This document shows, piece by piece, positions 19,099-45,939 of a DNA stretch of 64,000 bases. The DNA is from Candidatus Woodwardiibium gallinarum (GTDB taxonomy: Bacteria > Bacillota > Clostridia > Oscillospirales > CAG-382), in the NCBI GenBank assembly GCA_904419545.1, contig CAJFRY010000004.1, positions 9,435-73,434 on the forward strand. Direction: 5' to 3'. The position numbers and the translations under genes are program-made. Under the pieces are notes generated by a model. The model saw nothing but the letters and a program-made list of their open reading frames with translations, had not been told where the DNA came from and made no database searches. The first letter of the stretch is position 1, and each line of letters opens with the position of its first letter.

Positions 19099-21600
19099 AT
19101 GAAAACGCACATTCGGATTTTAACACTGCTGCTGGCGTTCTGCCTGCTGCTTCCGGCTGCGGCTGTAGCTGCGTTCGGGCAGGAGGACGAAACGAGCGGG
19201 CAGCCTCAGACGGCCGATGAGGTCGTCCTGCGCGTGGCGCCGTACACGGGCGGCACGGTTACGGTTACAGGCGCGCTCGGCGAGCCGGAAACCGAAACGG
19301 ACGGTACATACGCCTACCGCTTCGCGGCGGGCAGCGCCTTTACGCTGACGCTCACGCCCGAGGAAGGCAAAGCCGTTTCCGCAGCCACGCTCAACGGGAC
19401 GGCGATTACACTTATCGGCAGCGGCAGCACCAAGACCTATGCCGGCACCATCGAAGCCGATTCGACGCTGGCTGTGACCTTTTCCGACCCGCAGCCCACC
19501 GTCACGCACCGCGTGACGGTGACGGTCATCAACAGCTCGAACAAGGCCGTACTCGTGCGCGCGGACGGCGAGGAGGTGCTCGGCAGCTTCGCAGCCGACG
19601 AGGGCAGCACGCCGAGAATCTCCATCGAGACCGAAACCGGCTGCGCCGTCAGCAGCGTTACGCTGACCGATTCGGCCACCGGCAAGCAGACAACCATCCC
19701 CTACACCGGCGACCCGTTTACGCTTCCGGCGGTCACAGCCGACTGCACGCTGACCATCCTGACGGCCAACGCTTACTTTATCACCGTATCCGCCGCCTCC
19801 AACGGCAGCGTTTCGCCGTCGAGCGGGTATTACGCGGAGGGCTCCACCGTCGAACTGACGCTCACACCGAATGCGGGCTATGTGGTGGACTATCTTCTCG
19901 TCGACGGCGAGAAGGTGGAGCTGACCGGCAACACCTATGCGCATAAGGTCACGGACAGAGCGGTCATCACGGCCTACTTCAAAAAGGCCGTCGAGCAGGT
20001 TGAGGTTACGGTCAAAAACGACGACACGGCCGGCAGCGTCTCCGCCGCAGGCTATACCATCCAAAACGGCGCCTTTACGGTCGAAGCCGGCTCGCGCGTG
20101 ACCTTTACGGTCACACCGAACACCGGCTATGTGCTGGACAGCGTGACCGTTGACGGCACGGCGGTCGAAGTGACCGACAACACCTTCGTCGTCCCGGTGC
20201 GGGCGGCAGCGGAGGTCGTCATTACCTATAAGAAGTCCTACCGCATCACCGCCATTGTGTCCGACCAGGGCGGCGGGCGCATTACGGTCGACGAGCCGCA
20301 CGTACTGGAAAATATGTTTGTTTACGTGCCGGAGGGCGACCGCATTACCTTCACCTTTACGCCCGATATGGGATATGAGATCGATTATGTCCGGGTCGAC
20401 GGCACGCAGGTGACGCTGACGTCCGACAACAAATATACCATCACCGACGTGAAAAAGACCCACACCGTTTCGGTCGTGTTCAAGCATTCCGATACAGGCA
20501 GCACAACATACTCGATCTATGCAAGCGCAGGCGCCAACGGCAGCATTTCGCCGTCCGGCCGTCAGTCGGTTGCAGAGGGGACGAATCTGGTTTTCACCAT
20601 TACCCCGAATGCCGGATATGAGGTCGATTACGTGCAGGTCGACGGCAGCGACGTTTCGCTGACCGACGGCAAGTACGAATTCAAAAACATCGCGGGCAAC
20701 CACACCATCAACGTGTACTTCAAGGAAGCCGGCACCGTCAGCGCCGGCGCGATCACGAAGGAGGACGTCGACTGGACCAAGTCCCCGATCGAAATCTCGT
20801 TTGACACGACCACCGTCATCGATAAAGGCGTGTTCGATACCATTCTCAGCGAGCACCAGACGGTCGAAATCGTGATGAAATCGTCCGAATACGAATACTA
20901 TTTCCCCACCAATTCGGTCTTTACGCTCGACGGCTCGTCGGCGGACATGAAGATCCTGCGCAACGGCGGCAGCAATTATTCAGCCATCCTCGCGCTGCTC
21001 GAGCGCAAATCCATCACCGGTGAAAACTGCGTGCTTTCCTGCCCGCAGACCATCCGGATGCCCGAGGGCACAAGGCTGCGCGTGTTCATCGGCGCCTCGC
21101 TTGCCAAGCAGACGGTGCAGCTTTACATATACAAGGATGAAGATCTGACCCCTGTCAGCGGTCTGCTGACCGCCGACACGAGCGGCTGGGTCACGGTCGA
21201 GAACTATGGCGGCGGCGACCTGGTGTTCGTCCGCACCGACGTCGGTTCGTACACGGTAGCGGTCATCACCGGTGAAAACGGCTCGGTCGAGCCGGGCGGG
21301 AACGTTACGGCGGTCCGCGGCGAATCGCTGGAATTCAAGGCCACGGCGGCCGAGGGCTATGTCGTCGATTCCATCAAGGTCGACGGCGTGTCGATGGACA
21401 TCGAGCGCGGCAAGGCTGAGCTGACCTACACGCTGAACGTGCTGTCCAACCACACGGTAGAATTCACCTTTACCGAGGGAGAAGCAACCGACGGCGGCGG
21501 CTCGAATACGGGTCTGATCATCTCGATTGTAGTCATCGTGCTGGTGCTGGCAGGCGGCGGCGTGCTGTTCTACCTCAAATGGCGGCAGTCGCGGTTCTGA
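19099..21600 (+). CDS. Large surface protein with repeated InlB-B-repeat-like (Listeria/Bacteroides repeat type) domains and a C-terminal TM anchor
   Basis: Signal peptide at the N-terminus. A module of about 75-80 aa of the form NGSVSPSG...G..V.FT.TPN.GY.VD.V.VDG..V recurs at least 7 times. The C-terminus has a hydrophobic helix followed by KWRQSRF. Confidence 0.75.
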   Translation: MKTHIRILTLLLAFCLLLPAAAVAAFGQEDETSGQPQTADEVVLRVAPYTGGTVTVTGALGEPETETDGTYAYRFAAGSAFTLTLTPEEGKAVSAATLNGTAITLIGSGSTKTYAGTIEADSTLAVTFSDPQPTVTHRVTVTVINSSNKAVLVRADGEEVLGSFAADEGSTPRISIETETGCAVSSVTLTDSATGKQTTIPYTGDPFTLPAVTADCTLTILTANAYFITVSAASNGSVSPSSGYYAEGSTVELTLTPNAGYVVDYLLVDGEKVELTGNTYAHKVTDRAVITAYFKKAVEQVEVTVKNDDTAGSVSAAGYTIQNGAFTVEAGSRVTFTVTPNTGYVLDSVTVDGTAVEVTDNTFVVPVRAAAEVVITYKKSYRITAIVSDQGGGRITVDEPHVLENMFVYVPEGDRITFTFTPDMGYEIDYVRVDGTQVTLTSDNKYTITDVKKTHTVSVVFKHSDTGSTTYSIYASAGANGSISPSGRQSVAEGTNLVFTITPNAGYEVDYVQVDGSDVSLTDGKYEFKNIAGNHTINVYFKEAGTVSAGAITKEDVDWTKSPIEISFDTTTVIDKGVFDTILSEHQTVEIVMKSSEYEYYFPTNSVFTLDGSSADMKILRNGGSNYSAILALLERKSITGENCVLSCPQTIRMPEGTRLRVFIGASLAKQTVQLYIYKDEDLTPVSGLLTADTSGWVTVENYGGGDLVFVRTDVGSYTVAVITGENGSVEPGGNVTAVRGESLEFKATAAEGYVVDSIKVDGVSMDIERGKAELTYTLNVLSNHTVEFTFTEGEATDGGGSNTGLIISIVVIVLVLAGGGVLFYLKWRQSRF

Positions 21601-21650
21601 TGCGGTAAGCAACGGAAGATAGGCTCTCCGGCGGGGGAGACCGAACAAAA

Positions 21651-21686
21651 ACGGGTTTCGTGCCAAGTGCACGGAACCCGTTTTTT
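21651..21686 (+). terminator. Rho-independent terminator
   Basis: 13-bp stem ACGGGTTTCGTGC/GCACGGAACCCGT followed by TTTTT. Confidence 0.8.
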
Positions 21687-21882
21687 ATTTGTTCCGCGTC
21701 GCGCCCCGGCGTTATGGGAATCAGCCGTTCCCATATGCGTGCAGTCGAAGCGCCGGGGACCGGCATATAACTTTCCGGCGGATGTGCTCGACATAGAAGC
21801 CAACAACCTGTTAAAGGGCGAAAGGAAAGCAACACTGAAAAACAGATGCATGCCGTTGTTTTCTGAAAATAAAAACGCCAAT

Positions 21883-21925
21883 CCTCCCTTCGCCCAACGC
21901 CGCAAAGCGGCGTTGGGCGAGGGAG
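21883..21925. repeat. Long palindromic hairpin (core CCCAACGCCGC-AAA-GCGGCGTTGGG)
   Basis: Stem of about 19 bp with one bulge. Related palindromes lie at 22669-22697 and 59110-59133. Confidence 0.8.
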
Positions 21926-23086
21926 AAGGATTCGCTGTTATGGGACTGAAAGATGCGTGACAGACTGCACATCGTTAGAAAGCATGAGAAAAACAGGCGC
22001 GGTGGGAAATCGAATCGGCTGAAATGAAAGATAAAGGCTCCGCGTTTCTCTGTCGACGCTGTAAGAAAACGGAGCTTCTCCGGAAATTACCGATGCGATG
22101 CTTCTGTTTTCCCCAAAAGCAGAGGCGGCCTTGCAGCTTTTGCTTATAGAAAAAATAATCCGTCATCGGTTTTCAGGACAGCACAGCTTTCCCCTTTACA
22201 CCCATCGCCGCTGCGGCGTCGGGCATTGCGGAGAGACAAAAAAACAGGGGAGAAAATATGCCGACAAACAAAATATGTTTTTTGAAAACAAGCGCATCTG
22301 TTTGAAGACAGGCTACACGGCGAAGCGGGGTGGCTTGTCCTCGGAAAAAAAGATGCAATAAAAAATGGCACATCTGTTGCGTCAAGCAGCCGCTTCGCCG
22401 CCACTTACCCAATTCCAAAACCATTTCCCCTGTTCAGCACGGATATGCCGCTTTCGGTATATCCGCACCGGTTCTGTTCCACAGCAAATGATATCCGCCC
22501 CCAATGGCCAGCTGTGCCGCAGCGAATCATAGTTAGACAGAAAAAATTGCTGAGTGAAAAAGGGAACAGAAACGGGAATTTAAGAAGAAACGCATGGCAG
22601 CCGCTTTTTGTCACGTATGGATACGCCGTTTTTACAGCGCTGCAAAACGATGCCTTTTTACAAATTCTGCCCAACACCGCGTTGCGCGGCGTTGGGCATA
22701 AAGGGAGGGAGGAAGCGGCCGTCGCCCGTCAGATCATAAGACAAAATCCATCCATCTCACTCCGACGGCCTGCACCGCCAAGCGGCGCAGGCCGTTCGTG
22801 GGAAGTCCAAGAGCGCATATGCTTCCATTGTCCCCCATTATAAAAGCCGTTTTTCCCCTACGCGGCGTGGATATGCCGCACAACGGCATATCCACGTACC
22901 GCAACGCATTTCAGGTTTCCAAAACAACGTGCCGCGCCGCGAAGCCGCAGAACGGATGGGAAAAGCAGCGCCGCAAAAAACGGATTCCGCAATTCCGAAA
23001 CCGACAAAACGCTTTACAGGGACGGAACTGCCGCTGCACGCAAAACATCCCCCTCCGGCGCGCGTCCCCCGCTCCCGCCGACGGGC

Positions 23087-23183
23087 AAATCCACACCCGT
23101 GCATCTCCGAATCCACAGCGCTCTGCCTTGTTCTTTCACGAGATTTCCCACAGTTGTCCACATTGTCCACCGGGTTATCCACA
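23087..23183 (+). promoter_or_regulatory. DnaA-box array outside oriC (6 same-orientation boxes, one perfect)
   Basis: AAATCCACA 23087, GAATCCACA 23109, TTTCCCACA 23144, TTGTCCACA 23154, TTGTCCACC 23163 and TTATCCACA 23175-23183, compared with the consensus TTATCCACA. Confidence 0.6.
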
Positions 23184-23237
23184 ATTTGCGGCCGCTTTGC
23201 CACCTGCACCGGTGCAAAAAGCCCACAGCAGTGCACA

Positions 23238-33108: not shown

Positions 33109-33288
33109 AGCGTATTCAATCGTTCCTTCCTATATGTAGGTTATACGGTCATTATACGCGCATAGAGCTCGGTTCCGCAATAACAAACCGCAACCGGATT
33201 ATCAAAAACCGAAACCGCGCGAAAGCTGCGTCTTTCGTCCGGCTGTATCCGTTTGCTTCGGAAAGAAGCGAAAAAGGGAGACTTTTTT

Positions 33289-34062
33289 ATGTTTACAGCA
33301 CCCCGCATCCTCGTCTCGTCTCTGTCGGTTTTCGATGCGTCATTCGCCAAAGCCGGCGAAGTGACCGTGCCGCGGCGCGACTTCCATGCGCTGTCCTTCC
33401 GGCTGTCAGGCCGGATTACGGTGGAGACGGAAAACGAACGGCTGCTCTCGTCCGCAGGCGAGCTTACGTTCGTGCCGCAGGGGATATCCTATCGTACCGA
33501 AATTCTGGAGGACAGCCGCATTTACGTCGTCCACTTCAACACCGTTGACAGCTATCCGAAGCCTTCGCCCTTTGTCGTCGCTCCGCCTTATCCGGTCGTG
33601 CTGCGCAATCTTTTCGCGGGGCTGTTCTCGCGTTATCGCGTGGGAATGGAGCATGACCTGACCTGCCTGTCGATGTTTTACGAAATTCTCGCGGAAACGG
33701 TTCGCGCGCTGCCGGCGTCCGGCGAAACGGGCAGCGATTCGCCAAGGCTGCGCGCGGTCAGAGCGCAGATTGACCGTCATTTCGACGACCCCGGTATGAC
33801 CGTCGCCGCGCTGGCCGCGCACGCGGGCTGGAGCGAGGCCTATTTCCGCCGCGCGTTCCGCAAAGCGTTCGGCGTCCCGCCGCTGGAATATATCCGCCAA
33901 GTGCGGCTGGAGAACGCCAAAGCGCTTTTGCGGACGGGATATTACTCGGTCACGGAAACGGCTATGCGCTGCGGATTTGACAGTGTGAGTTATTTTTCCT
34001 ACACCTTCCGCAAAACGGTGGGCGTTACGCCGAGCGCGTACAGAGAACGGTTTTTATCCTGA
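33289..34062 (+). CDS. AraC-family transcriptional regulator (cupin plus HTH)
   Basis: The ATG at 33289 has an AAGGGAG SD 8 nt upstream. The C-terminus carries two HTH motifs (AALAAHAGWSEAYFRRAFRKAFG, ETAMRCGFDSVSYFSYTFRK). It is divergent from the Fe-S gene pair. Confidence 0.85.
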   Translation: MFTAPRILVSSLSVFDASFAKAGEVTVPRRDFHALSFRLSGRITVETENERLLSSAGELTFVPQGISYRTEILEDSRIYVVHFNTVDSYPKPSPFVVAPPYPVVLRNLFAGLFSRYRVGMEHDLTCLSMFYEILAETVRALPASGETGSDSPRLRAVRAQIDRHFDDPGMTVAALAAHAGWSEAYFRRAFRKAFGVPPLEYIRQVRLENAKALLRTGYYSVTETAMRCGFDSVSYFSYTFRKTVGVTPSAYRERFLS

Positions 34063-34451
34063 AATGCAATCAAAACAGTCGCAGACAGGCGTCCGAGCGT
34101 CGAGCTGAACGCCTGTCTGCGCACAGATAAAATGGGGAAGGCGTTTCCGTTCCATATCCGGTTTTCCGCAGCTCCGACGAATCTGTACGGCTGCGCCGGA
34201 CAACGGATTCGCTCTCGGCGGCATATGTGATGATTGGCAAACCAAAAACACAGGGGCGGCAGACATGGAAACGCCGCCGGACGGGTCCGGCTCCGCCGCA
34301 GAGGCTGCAAATCCGCAGCGGTTATGATAAAGCGGATCCGTTGCGCATTCACCGAACATCCGAACGAGAACGAACCCCGCCGTTCAGAAAGCGGCGCGGC
34401 ATGGGATTCGGATGTTTTCCACACCGTTGTGCACAACGCCCGCCGTCCTGT

Positions 34452-34521
34452 TTTCCCACATTTTCCGCCAAATTCTGCTGCCGCTTGCGGACTTATCCAC
34501 TTATCCACCGAGTTATCCACA
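34452..34521 (+). promoter_or_regulatory. DnaA-box array outside oriC (left copy of a direct repeat)
   Basis: TTTCCCACA 34452, TTATCCACT 34493, TTATCCACC 34501 and TTATCCACA 34513-34521. Confidence 0.6.
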
Positions 34522-34589
34522 ATCTGCAAATATTATAATTTTGATTTTAAACAGTCGTTTTATAAATAAACAACTCTGTACTACAGAAT

Positions 34590-34892
34590 TTAATCTATTG
34601 AAAAATCAGAAAAAGGCGCTTCTTCACTTACAAACGTATCGTAAGTAAACTTTGAACCAAGCCGAAATCCGACGAGAAAACAATCCAATAGCGAAGCGTC
34701 GTTTATTTTATGGGTCGTATCTATATATTTTGTAAACCAAGCTTTTTCATCATCTTGCAGGGTTTGTAAAAGCTGTACTTCGGCTTCGTTTTGTAATTGA
34801 ATTTCTTCTTCGAGTTTGGATTTCCCGCGTATCAATCGCAGTTGTGATTCGAGATTTCCATAATAAAATTCTTTCAAAATTCCTGACATCAT
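34590..34892 (-). CDS. Small hypothetical protein (about 100 aa), predicted helical, in a low-GC cassette
   Basis: The ORF has an AAAAGGAG SD 5 nt before the ATG at 34892 and its own promoter. The DNA is AT-rich compared with its neighbours. Confidence 0.6.
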   Translation of the reverse strand: MMSGILKEFYYGNLESQLRLIRGKSKLEEEIQLQNEAEVQLLQTLQDDEKAWFTKYIDTTHKINDASLLDCFLVGFRLGSKFTYDTFVSEEAPFSDFSID

Positions 34893-34918
34893 ATACACTC
34901 CTTTTCACTGATGCATTT

Positions 34919-34947
34919 ATTTTACACGATTTTCAATGGTTTTGCAA
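34919..34947 (-). promoter_or_regulatory. Promoter of the small cassette gene
   Basis: On the - strand: TTGCAA (34947-34942), 17-nt spacer, then TAAAAT (34924-34919). Confidence 0.5.
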
Positions 34948-35104
34948 GATGATATATTTACTTTCGTTTCAATAAAAATAATTACTATAATTATCTTTTT
35001 TCCAAGCATGAAGTTGCATTTCATATTCAAACCTGCTGATATAGCCCGGCGACTTACAGCAATCAAACTGCAAAAACAGTCGAAAACAGGTTTTGTTCCG
35101 ACAG

Positions 35105-35133
35105 TTATTCACTTATCCACCGAGTTATCCACA
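35105..35133 (+). promoter_or_regulatory. DnaA-box array outside oriC (right copy of the direct repeat)
   Basis: TTATTCACT 35105, TTATCCACC 35113 and TTATCCACA 35125-35133. The spacing and the GAG linker are the same as at 34493-34521. Confidence 0.6.
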
Positions 35134-35151
35134 ATGTCGTATTTTACGCGC

Positions 35152-35182
35152 AAAAAAGGACGCTTGAAAAAGCGTCCTTTTT
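35152..35182 (-). terminator. Terminator of the surface-protein gene (bidirectional shape)
   Basis: AAAAAGGACGC-TTGAAAAA-GCGTCCTTTTT, with A/T runs on both sides. Confidence 0.7.
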
Positions 35183-35195
35183 ATGGTATGTATGC

Positions 35196-36441: not shown

Positions 36442-36969
36442 TTATGTTTTCCCGCCGGCGACGGCGAACAGATAGTCGCTCTTATCCGCCAGCGGAACGG
36501 CCAGCGGACCGACAGGAACCCCGCAAACCTCGGGCAGCAGCTCGTTTCCGTCGCTGACCGAGAACGCAGGAAATTCGCGGATGCCGGCACCGGTATACTT
36601 GACGTACGCCTCGCGCCGCACCCAGACTTCGCCGAAGCGGCGAGGGTCGCTGCGGACAAACGCATAGTCCTCGGGTGTGAAAAACCGTTCCGCCACGGCA
36701 AGGAAGCGGCCTTCCCGAACGCAGGCAAAGCGGTCCCTCCGCTCGCCGTCGATGCCGAGCGGGCTGCCGGCCAGCGCCGCGACCATATAATCGCCGGTCG
36801 TTGTGACCGAAAGGTATCGCAGCGGCGGATAACCGGTGAGCGACGGCTTGCCATTGGCGTCATAGGCGACGCCGACGGCGGTTCCGAGCATCTTTTGAAG
36901 AGCATCGCACAGCGTTTTGTGACGGACGGCGGCGGTCGGTGCGTTATCCAGCACCAGCAGGCAGGGCAT
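36442..36969 (-). CDS. 4'-phosphopantetheinyl transferase (Sfp-type)
   Basis: 175 aa with GIDGERR, FFTPEDYAF and VWVRREAYVKYTG motifs. Its ATG shares one nt with the gyrA TAA (TAATG). Confidence 0.75.
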   Translation of the reverse strand: MPCLLVLDNAPTAAVRHKTLCDALQKMLGTAVGVAYDANGKPSLTGYPPLRYLSVTTTGDYMVAALAGSPLGIDGERRDRFACVREGRFLAVAERFFTPEDYAFVRSDPRRFGEVWVRREAYVKYTGAGIREFPAFSVSDGNELLPEVCGVPVGPLAVPLADKSDYLFAVAGGKT

Positions 36970-39512
36970 TACGCCTCACCTTCGGGCGGAAGCTCCGATT
37001 CGACTGTTTCCTCGGGCTCGACGGCGGATTCGGCGCCGTAGCTTTCCTCATCCTCCGGGCTGACGGCCGCAAAGGAGACAAGCGACGCGCCGTCGGTCAG
37101 CCGCATCACGATTACGCCGCCGGCGGAACGGCCGTAGACGGGGATATCCGCAACCTTGGTGCGGATGATAACGCCGGAATCGGACAACAGCATAATATCG
37201 TCGTCCGGCGCGACCATCGCAATGCCGGTCAGCTTGCCGGTTTTCTCGCTGACGCGATGACAAATCACGCCCTTGCCGCCGCGCTTCTGGTCGCTGAACT
37301 CGGCGATATCGGTCTGTTTGCCGTAGCCCTTGGAGGTGATGGTCAGCAAATGCTTCCCGCCCTCAGGCGGAATGACGGCGGCGCCGACGACGCGGTCGCC
37401 CGCAGTCAGACGGACAGCACGCACGCCGCGTGCCTGACGGCCTACGCAGCGGACGTCGTTTTCATCAAAGCGGATGGCATAGCCCTTCTCGGTGGCGGCG
37501 ATGATCGAGGTGCTCCCGTCGGTCTTGAGCACCGAGAGCAGCTCGTCGCCCTCATCGAGCGTGACGGCGTACAGGCCGCCGGTGCGGCGGGTTCGATAAG
37601 CCATCAGGTTTACGCGTTTGACAATACCCTGCCGCGTCAGCATAACCAGATATTCATCCGCCGTAAATTCGGCCACCGACAGAATAGCGGTGATCTCCTC
37701 GTCCGGCTCGAGAGAAAGCACGTTGACAAGGTTCGTTCCCTTCGAGGTCCTGCCGGCCTCGGGGATCTCATAGCATTTCTTGATGTACAGCCGGCCGCGG
37801 TTGGAGAACATCAGCAGATAGTCATGGCTGTGTGCGACGAGCACTTCCTTGACGTAATCCTCCTCCTTGGTCGTCATCGCGGTAACGCCCTTGCCGCCGC
37901 GCCGCTGCGCCTGATAGGTCTCGGACGGCAGCCGTTTGATGTATCCCTCGCTTGTGACCGTGACCACGCAGCTTACACGGTCGATGAGGTCTTCGATGAG
38001 AATTTCGTTTTCGACCTCTTCAATCGAGGTGCGGCGTTCGTCGCCGTAACGGTCTTTGATTTTCTGCAAATCTTCCTTAATAATGGCTGTCAGCTTGGAT
38101 TCGTCGGCAAGGATCCCTTTCAATTCCTCGATGAGCGCGTAAAGCGCCTGCAGGCGTTCCTCGATCTTCTGCCGTTCGAGACCCGACAGACGGCCGAGCG
38201 TCATATCGACGATGGCCTGCGACTGCGCTTCGCTGAGTCCGAAGCGCGACTGCAGCTTCTCGCGCGCATCGGACACGTTTGCAGACGAGCGGATGATCTG
38301 GATTACCTCGTCAATATGGTCAATCGCAATTTTCAGGCCTTCATAGATGTGCGCCTCGCGCTCGGCACGGTTAAGCTCAAACTGCGTGCGCCGGCGGATG
38401 ACGTCCTCCTGATGACGGATATAGTAATAAAGCATCTCCCTGAGGTTGAGCACCTTCGGCTCGCCCTCGACGAGCGCAAGCATATTGACTGCACAGGTAT
38501 CCTGAAGCTGGGTATATTTGTACAGCAGGTTGAGTACAACCTGCGCATTGGCGTCCTTTTTGATCTCGATAACGATGCGCATACCCGCGCGGCCGGACTC
38601 ATTGCGGATATCGCTGATCCCGTCGATGCGCTTGGTCTTGACAAGATTGACCATATTTTCCAGCAGCAGCGAACGGTTGACCTGATACGGCAGCTCAGTG
38701 ACGATGATGCTTGTCCTGCCGCGCTTTTCCTCAAAATGTGCTTTGGCGCGCACACGGATGCGGCCGCGGCCGGTCATATACGCCTCGCGGATGCCGGCGG
38801 TGCCGTAAATGGTGCCGTATGTCGGGAAATCCGGCCCTTTGATAAACTGCATCAGGTCGGAAACGGTGCAGTCAGGGTGGTCGATCATATAAACAGTCGC
38901 GTCGATCACCTCACCGAGGTTATGCGGCGGAATGTTCGTCGCCATCCCGACGGCGATGCCGATGGAGCCGTTGACCAGCAGGTTCGGGAACCGCGAAGGC
39001 AGCACGAGCGGCTCCTTGCGGGTATTGTCAAAATTCATCCCGTATTCGATGACGTCCTTTTCGATATCGACGAGCATCTCGTTGGCAAGCCGGGACATTC
39101 TTGCTTCTGTATAACGATAGGCGGCAGCGGAATCGCCGTCGATGTTGCCGAAGTTGCCATGCCCTTCGACAAGCGGATACCGCAGCGAAAAGGGCTGTGC
39201 CAGCCGGACCATCGTATCGTACACGGCGACGTCGCCATGCGGATGGTAGCGGCCGAGCACGTTTCCGACCGTCGTCGCGGATTTGCGGAAAGGCTTGTCG
39301 TAGGTCAGCTTATCCTCATACATCGCGTAGAGGATGCGGCGGTGGACCGGCTTAAGGCCGTCCCGCACGTCGGGCAGCGCGCGGCCGACAATGACCGACA
39401 TCGCATAATCGATGTACGCAGTCTTGATCTCCTTTTCAATGCCGACGTCCTGGATGATCTGCTCCTCGTGCGCGCTGTAGTCGTATTCATGTTCGTGTGC
39501 CATATGCTTCAC
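36969..39512 (-). CDS. gyrA: DNA gyrase subunit A
   Basis: 847 aa with [24 protein letters not shown] (catalytic Tyr) and C-terminal beta-pinwheel repeats. Confidence 0.95.
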
Positions 39513-43990: not shown

Positions 43991-44171
43991 ATAACAATCA
44001 TAATGTTTTATCTATAAGGTATTAGCAGTAGCAATAGTAGTAGGCTCTGTGGGAAATGTGGAAAAGCGGAAAAACGCTTTTATTGAAGGGCGTTTCGGCA
44101 TTTTTTCATGTGGACGGGCTGTGAACGGACAGCGGACAGGCACGAGAAAACGGTGGAAAAGCTGTGGACAG
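43991..44171. other. oriC core: AT-rich block, DnaA-trio-like TAG repeats, GC spacer, DnaA boxes
   Basis: AT-rich block at 43991-44022. Trios TAG CAG TAG CAA TAG TAG TAG at 44023-44043, then GCTC. Boxes TGTGGGAAA 44048, TGTGGAAAA 44057, TGTGGACGG 44109, TGTGAACGG 44120, GGTGGAAAA 44152 and TGTGGACAG 44163. Confidence 0.65.
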
Positions 44172-44219: not shown

Positions 44220-44527
44220 TTACTGCACCTTTTCCGTATATCCGCAGGTAAATGGAAAAAAATCGTACTTGTTTGTTCCCGTGTGTATGAATCCGGCCGT
44301 TTCATACCATCGGCGAAGGATGCGGTTTTCCTCGGCAGTGCCGATATGCATCATCCGGCAGCCCGTCGCCTTGGACTGCGCGAACGCGTGACGCAGCATG
44401 GCGGCGCCGGTTCCCTGATGGGCGACAGGCGGGGGCGGACGCACAGGCTGTTCAGCCCGCAGGCATTGTTCTCCAAAGTCAGCGAATGGAATCCGGCGGG
44501 CCTTCCGCCTTGGTCACCGGCGTACAT
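44220..44527 (-). pseudogene. GNAT acetyltransferase remnant (N-terminally truncated, frameshifted) inside the dnaA-dnaN spacer
   Basis: The motif A region reads LNSLCVRP in one frame and continues PPPVAHQGTGAAMLRHA...RRWYETAGF in another. The shift is at a C5 run (44431-44435). Confidence 0.5.
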
Positions 44528-44571: not shown

Positions 44572-45939
44572 TCAGAGCGTCGTCAGTTCCTTGCTCAGCT
44601 CGCGGATTTCCTTATCGAAGGCCGAATCCTTTTTCATCCGGTTGATGACGTTGTCACGCGCGTTGATGACCGTCGAATGGTCACGGCCGAACTGGCGGCC
44701 GATGGCCTTGAGCGAAAGGCCGGTGTATTCGGTGCAGAGGTACATCGCGATGTGACGGACGTATACAATATCGCTGGTGCGCTTTTTGCCGCGGATGTCT
44801 TCAATGGAAAAGCCGTAGCGGCGCGAAACAAAGGAAAATATTTTTTCGCTTGTGACACGCTCGCTGCCGCCGGAGGAAAAAAAGTCCTTGAGCACATCGG
44901 CGGCCATTGCCTTGGAAATCGGCTCGCCGGTGATGAAGCTCTGCGCGCGCAGCCGCTTGAGTGCGCCCTCGATCTGACGGACGTTGTTGGTGATGTTTTC
45001 CGACAGGTAGGTGATGACCTCGTTGTCCAGCCGGATACCCAGCAGCTTGGTTTTCATCTTGAAAATGGCAGCGCGCAGCTCGGTGTCCGGCGGCTGGATG
45101 TCGGCCATCAGGCCGCTTTCAAAGCGGGTCTGCAGGCGCGATTCCAGATAGCTGATGTCGCGCGGCGGCCGGTCGGAGGTAAGTATGATCTGCTTTCGTT
45201 CGTTATAAAGCGCGTTGAAGGTATGGAAGAATTCCTCCTGCACCGAGTATTTGCCGGCAATGAAATGCACGTCGTCGACTAAAAGCATGTCCACATTGCG
45301 GTATTTTTCCTTAAATGCCATGTTCCGGTTCTGCCGCAGCGCCAGTGCATCGATGAGCTCGTTTGTGAATTCCTCACTGGTGACATAAAGGATATTGAAG
45401 TTTGGGTGCAGCTTTTTGACTTCATTCATAATCGCGAACAAAAGATGCGTTTTCCCCAGACCCGACGGACCGAAGAGAAACAGCGGGTTATACAGCTCGG
45501 CCGGGTGCTGCGCGACCGCAAAGGCGGCGGCCTGCGCGAGCTGGTTGGATGAGCCGACGACGAAATTGTCAAACGTGTATTCGCTGCGTGAATTCGGACC
45601 CGAAGGAGACGCCGGCTGTGCGGAAGGCGTGGGACGGGCAGGCGGCGCACTGGTGATAAAAAGCCGTTCCTCACTGCGCGCATCGCTGTCACCGGCGGCG
45701 GATTCAATGCGGACTTCGACCTTGAAGCCGAGCACCTCTTCGAACATTCGTTCCAGAACCGGCAGATATTTTTTCTCAATAATGCTTTTTTTGAAATCGT
45801 CCTCCGCTATGATCGTTACGCTGTCACCGTCCAACGAAGAGAGCGTTGCGCTGCCGAACCACAGGCCCACGGTGGTCTCGGAGAATTCCTTTTTCAGTTT
45901 TTCTACGATGTCGTGCCACAGATTTTCTCCGATGTTCAT
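44572..45939 (-). CDS. dnaA: Chromosomal replication initiator protein DnaA
   Basis: 455 aa with GPSGLGKTHLL (Walker A), LLVDDVHF, and the domain IV motif RHIAMYLCTEYTGLSLKAIGRQFGRDHSTV. Confidence 0.95.
   Translation of the reverse strand: MNIGENLWHDIVEKLKKEFSETTVGLWFGSATLSSLDGDSVTIIAEDDFKKSIIEKKYLPVLERMFEEVLGFKVEVRIESAAGDSDARSEERLFITSAPPARPTPSAQPASPSGPNSRSEYTFDNFVVGSSNQLAQAAAFAVAQHPAELYNPLFLFGPSGLGKTHLLFAIMNEVKKLHPNFNILYVTSEEFTNELIDALALRQNRNMAFKEKYRNVDMLLVDDVHFIAGKYSVQEEFFHTFNALYNERKQIILTSDRPPRDISYLESRLQTRFESGLMADIQPPDTELRAAIFKMKTKLLGIRLDNEVITYLSENITNNVRQIEGALKRLRAQSFITGEPISKAMAADVLKDFFSSGGSERVTSEKIFSFVSRRYGFSIEDIRGKKRTSDIVYVRHIAMYLCTEYTGLSLKAIGRQFGRDHSTVINARDNVINRMKKDSAFDKEIRELSKELTTL

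Follow-up and report, generated by a model that had tools for sequence, protein, structure and literature searches.

An uncultured gut clostridial species carries two copies of a triple DnaA-box array around a strain-variable gene slot near its chromosome origin

Clusters of DnaA boxes outside the replication origin are, to our knowledge, known experimentally almost only from Bacillus subtilis, Escherichia coli and Streptomyces. What, then, is the nature of two near-identical arrays of three DnaA boxes that stand as direct repeats on either side of a short AT-rich cassette in the chromosome of an uncultured gut Clostridia species? The locus lies in a stretch of 64,000 nt from Candidatus Woodwardiibium gallinarum (GenBank assembly GCA_904419545.1, contig CAJFRY010000004.1, positions 9,435 to 73,434 of the forward strand), hereafter called the window, in whose numbering all coordinates are given. 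An initial annotation of this DNA had offered three readings: a DnaA-titrating box cluster outside the origin, a small checkpoint or regulator gene under the control of DnaA in the manner of sda or sirA, and a foreign cassette that had inserted into a pre-existing array and thereby duplicated it. The first of these is the best supported. The paired arrays probably represent chromosomal DnaA-box clusters (DBCs) close to the origin (oriC), like those of B. subtilis, which were duplicated once and between which accessory DNA has turned over. This is suggested by a module of oriC type that is conserved in a sister clade and lies in an intergenic position on the left replichore, 9-10 kb from the origin.

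The arrays and the slot that they enclose are the following.
34493..34523, + strand: left triple DnaA-box array, TTATCCACt / TTATCCACc / gag / TTATCCACA / at; full 31-mer TTATCCACTTATCCACCGAGTTATCCACAAT
35105..35135, + strand: right triple DnaA-box array, TTATTCACt / TTATCCACc / gag / TTATCCACA / at; full 31-mer TTATTCACTTATCCACCGAGTTATCCACAAT
34524..35104, no strand: strain-variable slot in the form present here (allele A), 581 nt with 33% GC; elsewhere allele B with 3.1-3.7 kb or allele C with at least 2.9 kb

As the initial annotation had it, the two arrays agree in orientation and internal spacing. They form a direct repeat of 31 nt on the + strand (612 nt from start to start) with 30 of 31 positions identical, the sole difference between left and right being a C to T at position 5. 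Each array comprises three DnaA boxes of the same orientation at offsets of 0, 8 and 20 nt, i.e. in steps of 8 and 12 nt, and box 3 of each is a perfect TTATCCACA. Compared with this 9-mer consensus, two of the six boxes are perfect and three have one mismatch, while box 1 of the right array has two; the arrays are indeed nearer to the consensus than the boxes in the dnaA-dnaN spacer, the best of which (TTTTCCACA, 44057-44065) has one mismatch. No further copy of the 31-nt repeat with up to three mismatches occurs in the 64 kb, nor did any of 100 shuffled sequences yield a match at this threshold, and the window as a whole contains 22 boxes within one mismatch of TTATCCACA against 6.5 +/- 2.8 expected. 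The 29-nt module, consisting of a box followed by others at +8 and +20 in one orientation, is real, duplicated and fixed in the species. A search of Rfam at the paired-array locus found nothing.

A DBC has been described as a group of consensus-like DnaA boxes, three or more in number, that are on average less than 100 bp apart (quoted in PMC7561715). Here three boxes share 29 nt, and the left array is joined within 80 nt by three weaker boxes of the same orientation; the stretch that these occupy (34415-34460) is the peak of the window in the density of boxes with at most two mismatches.
34415-34423, + strand: auxiliary weaker box, TTTTCCACA
34427-34435, + strand: auxiliary weaker box, TTGTGCACA
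34452-34460, + strand: auxiliary weaker box, TTTCCCACA
23144..23185, + strand: third array of the same orientation, TTTCCCACA g TTGTCCACA TTGTCCACC ggg TTATCCACA at

Neither the auxiliary boxes nor the third array nor the family of the cassette gene (see below) figured in the initial annotation. At least three arrays are thus found within 21 kb on one side of the origin. The third lies downstream of a nucleotidyltransferase gene; it is the same in five strains, and variable DNA does not adjoin it. Two partial boxes of the ATCCACA type (23089-23119) stand ahead of it, and between a Flg_new_2 surface-protein gene and this array there are about 1.5 kb (21600-23140) without a convincing open reading frame (ORF) or Rfam match, 99.4-99.9% identical in other strains, for which pseudogene debris or a long non-coding region are candidates.

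The same module recurs far beyond this species. Public metagenome contigs were scanned with TTATNCACTTATCCACNNNNTTATCCACA, in which the geometry is fixed and the spacer free (24 specified bases), and the module was found in at least 117 contigs, which form at least 47 groups with unrelated flanks, whereas the chance expectation is about zero. At the free positions a consensus of A-n-A-G in the spacer and of AG before box 1 is apparent. As judged by tblastn with the replication proteins of the window, the dnaA-dnaN spacer contains the module in the L137/L189 group, L140, L167, L171 and L176, and in the L123 group it is situated about 290 nt upstream of dnaA; in L140, L167, L171 and L176, box 3 is followed by a short spacer and then by DnaA-trios of the CTACTAC type. 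Similarly, three boxes stand directly upstream of the trios in the origins of B. subtilis and Clostridioides difficile (PMC7561715), and the unwinding system includes tandem boxes no more than 3 bp apart (PMC8287927). Because the same module precedes DnaA-trios in the dnaA-dnaN spacer of several taxa, the arrays of the window are, to judge by their sequence, orphan copies of an oriC-type docking module for DnaA. Other groups carry it in ordinary chromosomal contexts, e.g. near recG or a recD2-like gene.

Several further observations were made on these contigs. In L104, L156, L164, L178, L180, L155, L101 and L197 an opposite box (GTGGACAA or GTGGATAA) follows 13-20 nt after the triple array, and behind it TGTTTCAC and GTGAAAC half-sites, a few bases apart, resemble the halves of parS; this composite of triple array, opposite box and parS-like sites recurs in several unrelated taxa and is not present at the window arrays. 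An enrichment of Spo0A boxes to the left of the arrays in other taxa was considered and proved not significant (6 of 47 groups, about 4 expected). An apparent insertion directly after the array of another species (L124, 1-850) was likewise rejected: AT-rich DNA on the dnaA side gives way to unrelated GC-rich DNA exactly at the end of the 29-mer, and a chimeric assembly joined at a shared 29-mer is the more likely explanation, which calls for caution with short-read assemblies around these arrays.

The true origin of the chromosome is situated at about 44.0 kb, where boxes, DnaA-trios and the cumulative GC-skew minimum (about 44 kb) coincide; search rules for the unwinding module are given in PMC8287927.
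44020..44065, - strand: oriC unwinding module in the dnaA-dnaN spacer, with TTTTCCACA TTTCCCACA, gagc, DnaA-trios and an AT-rich stretch
44572-45939, - strand: dnaA, encoding the DnaA N-terminal, ATPase and C-terminal box-binding domains

The trios read CTA CTA CTA TTG CTA CTG CTA ATA (complement of 3'-GAT-5' trios), and the boxes of oriC itself are weaker than those of the arrays and directly abut. By the same measure, i.e. trios within about 16 bp of the boxes and then an AT-rich element, no trios or unwinding features follow any of the three arrays, nor does the GC skew switch there; the absence of trios behind all three argues that the arrays are not origins. The pair is instead placed as a DBC would be, outside oriC in an intergenic position, at a distance of 9-10 kb from both the unwinding module and the minimum of the GC skew. 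The dnaA-dnaN spacer also harbours, upstream of the unwinding module, the remnant of a frameshifted GNAT-type acetyltransferase C-terminus (44220-44527, - strand).

The arrays lie between two convergent core genes, and the features around them are listed here from left to right.
33253..34062, + strand: AraC-family regulator gene (AraC), left-hand core neighbour
34590..34892, - strand: DUF6809 gene (PF20648), 100 aa; likely start ATG 34892, preceded by AAAGGAG
34919..34947, - strand: promoter-like site TTGCAA-17-TAAAAT, a consensus match only
35068..35104, + strand: inner flank of the right array, 37 nt, common to A and C at 36/37 positions, with weak similarity in allele B
35152..35183, no strand: hairpin flanked by an A-run and a T-run, read from the sequence; downstream of the LPXTG-type gene and conserved in L187 and L175
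35196..36062, - strand: LPXTG-type surface-protein gene (LPXTG), 288 aa, right-hand core neighbour; in the sister clade between both arrays
36442-36969, - strand: phosphopantetheinyl transferase gene (PPTase)
36969-39512, - strand: gyrA

The hairpin is likely the terminator of the LPXTG-type gene. The - strand also carries dnaN, recF, a RemA-like gene and gyrB, and to the right of dnaA rnpA and yidC follow on the + strand; the identities of dnaN, recF, gyrB, gyrA, rnpA and yidC were confirmed.

Between the arrays the GC content is 0.29-0.37, or 0.33 over the inner 583 nt, compared with about 0.6 outside, and the AT-richness that had been pointed out by eye thus holds for the window. The content of the slot, however, differs from strain to strain while the arrays stay. 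An exact look-up of the PPTase protein, which is recorded in 1061 blocks of the collection (ENA, JGI, NCBI and Logan assemblies), provided 25 conspecific contigs from ENA metagenome assemblies, one of them (L231) labelled human gut. All of these keep the arrays, and the left one is identical throughout. The arrangement of the window (allele A) is present in about 15 of the 25. About nine possess allele B, with 3.1-3.7 kb between the same arrays, which encodes an XRE regulator of 112 aa, a small membrane protein, a double-zinc-ribbon protein and a secreted protein of 535-725 aa with Listeria-Bacteroides repeats and a dockerin. Allele C, represented by L175, combines the same XRE gene with a zinc-ribbon membrane protein and two lipoproteins, of which one has an NPCBM domain. 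Inner GC contents are 0.33 in A, 0.50 in B and 0.44 in C, against 0.57 for the window. Comparison of the window with L187 (allele B) demonstrates that homology ends at 34524 and resumes at 35102, that is, at the array edges.

Throughout the alleles, TTATCCAC is found in the left array and TTATTCAC in the right, with the T at position 5 of the right array fixed in A, B and C. Moreover, the 37-nt inner flank is common to alleles A and C, as is the XRE end to alleles B and C. This mosaic and the fixed difference between left and right indicate that the two arrays predate the alleles, with turnover of what lies between them; they do not point to independent insertions at an att site. An empty site, i.e. 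a single array without a slot, was found in none of the 25 contigs.

The sister clade (L106, L107, L134, L195 and L235) displays a different arrangement of the same elements. Amino acid identities to the window are 79% for AraC, 67-76% for the LPXTG protein, 70% for PPTase and 93-95% for the adjacent Fe-S protein genes, and AraC is followed in turn by array 1, the LPXTG gene, about 750 nt, array 2, PPTase and gyrA. A single array therefore stands between AraC and LPXTG, the second lies beyond LPXTG, the pair brackets the LPXTG gene, and there is no DUF6809/XRE slot. Array 1 is identical to the left array of the window at 28-29 of 29 positions and array 2 differs in the spacer alone. In the AraC-to-LPXTG interval the arrays are the sole sequence that blastn can align between window and sister clade, the flanking coding DNA being 72-79% identical; in the LPXTG-to-PPTase interval, too, it found no other similarity. 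Conservation of the arrays thus exceeds the neutral background, with the reservation that most sister contigs (L106, L107, L134 and L195) were retrieved by the box pattern itself and only L235 via its LPXTG homologue.

Some features of this interval are of interest in themselves. The 430 nt from AraC to the left array (34062-34492) are GC-rich, contain no credible gene and are without equivalent in the sister clade, whose array sits 143 nt past AraC. An ORF of 169-176 aa across the left array (33999-34529, - strand), proposed by some gene callers, was judged spurious on account of its richness in Arg, its overlap with the AraC end and its lack of a family. The LPXTG gene is itself accessory: L238 has a homologue with 74% identity in an unrelated context, without arrays and with a similar AT-rich promoter region.

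Taken as origin-proximal DBCs, the arrays would bind DnaA with high affinity, as their sequence and the analogy with origins suggest, and would buffer or titrate it near the origin, restraining initiation in the way of the B. subtilis clusters or of E. coli datA. One ancestral event would have left a module on either side of the entering DNA and created a slot for accessory genes in the convergent intergenic region, which was later remodelled by internal replacement and deletion; the low-GC DUF6809 cassette of 581 nt would be one of at least three alleles and a passenger. That the duplication occurred once is suggested by the C/T difference, constant in all alleles, by the flank common to A and C and by the XRE end common to B and C. 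Most likely it arose when DNA entered the AraC/LPXTG intergenic region at or beside an array, and the mechanism could be either Campbell-type recombination with DNA that bore the module or a recombinase acting in trans.

Several points weigh against this interpretation. Binding of DnaA to the arrays is deduced from their boxes and from the analogy with origins. The conservation in the sister clade is partly ascertained, as the search pattern needs intact boxes, a bias mitigated by the finding that both arrays are intact on all five contigs spanning the locus. One base is common to boxes 1 and 2, so that three DnaA molecules may not fit at the same time. The locus is also young, for more distant relatives lack arrays at these genes: orthologues of AraC with 45-50% identity lie in a gene block placed elsewhere and have no arrays, and the PPTase relatives in GTDB genomes, of which the best is 47% identical and which are too distant to inform, include none with arrays after gyrA-PPTase. 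Finally, titration leaves unexplained why variable DNA sits exactly between the two copies and why, in the species and its sister clade alike, two arrays 0.6-3.7 kb apart enclose different accessory genes.

An explanation by recombination we regard as rather doubtful. The arrays would be recombination sites, either att-like targets of a recombinase encoded elsewhere or a portable homology patch of 29-31 nt; in the latter version circular foreign DNA that carries the module integrates at an array in Campbell fashion and duplicates it, and cassettes are later swapped or accreted. Direct repeats around DNA of foreign composition are what att sites would produce, and such repeats of 31 nt do bound the slot in all three alleles, with the breakpoints of A and B at the array edges. 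The sister clade, with one array between AraC and LPXTG and another beyond LPXTG, conforms to serial insertions. Elsewhere DUF6809 follows directly after a tyrosine integrase (L224) or lies beside TnpV (L219), and identical 29-mers occur in unrelated genomes, one probable chimeric contig being joined at such a 29-mer. On the other hand, no integrase, serine recombinase or transposase gene is present in or beside alleles A, B and C, no empty site was encountered among the conspecific contigs, and the third array has no variable DNA beside it. The fixed base difference between left and right and the inner 37 nt of A and C argue for one event, not for repeated insertions. Furthermore, the allele A cassette matches no plasmid or phage record, and the module occurs in only 2 of 2.9 million viral contigs, for which reason its origin as a phage motif was dropped as well. 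The foreign cassette proposed in the initial annotation thus stands in part: the insert is poor in GC, strain-variable and bounded by the arrays, and the sister clade has a single array between AraC and LPXTG, but the junctions and the missing recombinase indicate one old duplication and not a working att site.

Both functions could also be combined, though this strikes us as unlikely. The module would then have a second role as a site of recombination or integration, and DnaA binding would keep its 29-31 nt identical across genomes, so that it could serve as universal homology or as the target of some recombinase. Foreign DNA would be captured there with duplication of the array, and accessory cassettes near the origin would be exchanged. 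If this were true, the origin-proximal DnaA-box clusters of this lineage would serve as a platform for the acquisition of cassettes, and bound DnaA might insulate the captured genes or set their dosage.

The cassette gene itself might be thought to explain the arrays. In that case it would be a checkpoint or regulator gene like sda or sirA, with the upstream array controlling it and the downstream array assisting by looping, a proposal to which we attach very little probability and which can be effectively excluded. As had been annotated, there is one intact gene of 100 aa on the - strand with a strong Shine-Dalgarno sequence and a good match to a promoter (34947-34919), an array lies upstream of it, and the gene is conserved; Sda, too, is small and helical, and DnaA boxes stand ahead of its gene (PMC3245932). 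The product belongs to Pfam family DUF6809 (PF20648; E 5e-17, 62.9 bits against a gathering threshold of 27, profile positions 1-84 of 85), its 111 homologues are each annotated as DUF6809 alone, and the family motifs FYYGN[IL][ED]PQ and DSFxVGFRLGAxFTYDTFV are present in the alignment except for the near-invariant Pro16, which is Ser in this species. Some strains (L001, L002) have an in-frame deletion of 24 bp that removes EIQLQNEA from helix 1. The AlphaFold2 prediction (pLDDT 77) consists of a short helix at the N-terminus and a long hairpin of antiparallel helices; no significant match in sequence or fold was found in the PDB; searches returned no PHROG, PADLOC or NCBIfam family, and no paper on DUF6809 was found.

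What decides against DnaA control is the behaviour of gene and boxes in other strains and genomes. About nine of the 25 conspecific contigs lack DUF6809, so that the arrays persist around quite different genes in about a third of strains, and those of the sister clade flank yet another gene. In seven other contexts (L003-L009, L219-L225) no DnaA boxes were found near DUF6809 genes, and in the window the nearest array, the upstream one, ends about 160 nt before the -35 element. The other contexts point to a mobile past: in L003-L009 DUF6809 comes after an XRE regulator of about 110 aa, with a YoeB/Phd toxin-antitoxin pair and a transposase gene with an integrase core domain (rve) nearby, in L219 GmrSD accompanies it in addition to TnpV, and in L221-L223 it occupies a strain-variable spot. 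The XRE proteins of alleles B and C are 32-37% identical to the XRE neighbours of DUF6809 elsewhere. As the gene travels with XRE regulators, an integrase or TnpV, it is probably a functional remnant of the regulatory module of a mobile element, and, as the genes of the slot differ between strains while the arrays stay, it rides in the slot as a passenger and is no regulator under DnaA control.

An interpretation as a cryptic second origin, or as that of an integrated replicon, resembling a bipartite oriC that loops out a gene, is likewise effectively excluded: two clusters of an oriC-type module do flank AT-rich DNA, but the AT-richness is confined to allele A, the switch in GC skew falls at 44 kb, not 35 kb, trios are absent behind all three arrays, a complete unwinding module is already present in the dnaA-dnaN spacer, and there is no gene for a replication protein. 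It is equally hard to believe that the repeat is a dispersed motif of some other factor with an incidental resemblance to DnaA boxes, since, widely scattered and mostly not visibly at origins as it is, it consists of boxes at or near the consensus (only box 1 of the right array deviates by two bases), recurs between dnaA and dnaN directly before trios in several taxa, and meets in this organism a DnaA with a standard C-terminal box-binding domain.

Uncultured gut Clostridia thus appear to carry a compact three-box module, redeployed from its place in front of the trios at origins to intergenic sites near the origin and kept under strong constraint. Its signature, TTATnCAC-TTATCCAC-n4-TTATCCACA (also written TTATNCAC-TTATCCAC-N4-TTATCCACA), can be used to find regulatory sites of DnaA in metagenomes. 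The paired copies around a variable slot raise the question whether sites bound by DnaA promote or tolerate the acquisition of genes beside the origin, where dosage is highest, and a mis-annotation of the small DUF6809 gene as a DnaA-linked checkpoint gene is averted. These results should be of use to specialists in replication control and for annotation; on present evidence they do not amount to a new kind of system.

Among known systems, the sporulation checkpoint genes sda and sirA of Bacillus share with this locus a small gene beside DnaA boxes near the origin, but DUF6809 has no homology to them, is not linked to boxes elsewhere and is missing from many strains that keep the boxes. Genomic islets flanked by att sites, such as integrase-mediated islands or cis-mobilisable remnants, are similar in having direct repeats of about 30 nt around strain-variable DNA of low GC content, with a single repeat at the equivalent junction of a related clade, which here has its second array beyond LPXTG. 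They differ in that no integrase or excisionase is present at our locus, in that the junction details indicate one old event, and in that the repeat is, by its sequence, a protein-binding module conserved across taxa and does not represent the end of a gene, tRNA or other. The datA and DARS1/2 sites of E. coli are also non-origin box clusters near oriC, which modulate the availability or the nucleotide state of DnaA. However, datA needs IHF and five boxes, datA and DARS are proteobacterial systems with Hda/RIDA partners that Firmicutes do not possess, and the core of DARS has one box opposed to the other two, whereas all boxes of the window arrays are on the + strand.

The box set that precedes the trios of oriC is closer, with three boxes of the same orientation of which the last two are 3 nt apart, although the window arrays have no trios or dedicated unwinding element and are 9-21 kb away from the real origin. 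Closest of all are the DBCs of B. subtilis, six intergenic clusters, mostly near oriC, that restrain initiation (Okumura et al. 2012; PMC3245932) and that in different Bacillus species adjoin different genes yet stay near oriC (PMC3245932). As there, the clusters described here are intergenic, comprise at least three consensus-like boxes, lie outside but mostly close to oriC, have neighbour genes that vary, and would exert negative control of initiation by binding DnaA, which in our case is proposed from the sequence. They depart from the B. subtilis clusters in being a compact module of 29-31 nt with fixed offsets of 8 and 12 nt, and in occurring as a near-identical direct pair, spaced 0.6-3.7 kb, with strain-variable DNA in between. 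No published description of such a paired or stereotyped module was found, the sole full-text match to a 16-mer being an unrelated paper on diatom bioengineering. The statement of the initial annotation that no system of this geometry has been described accordingly applies to the paired arrangement and not to the triple-box module itself. DnaA-box clusters as a kind are known; new are the stereotyped 29-nt module, its wide recurrence and the paired copies that bracket a variable slot.

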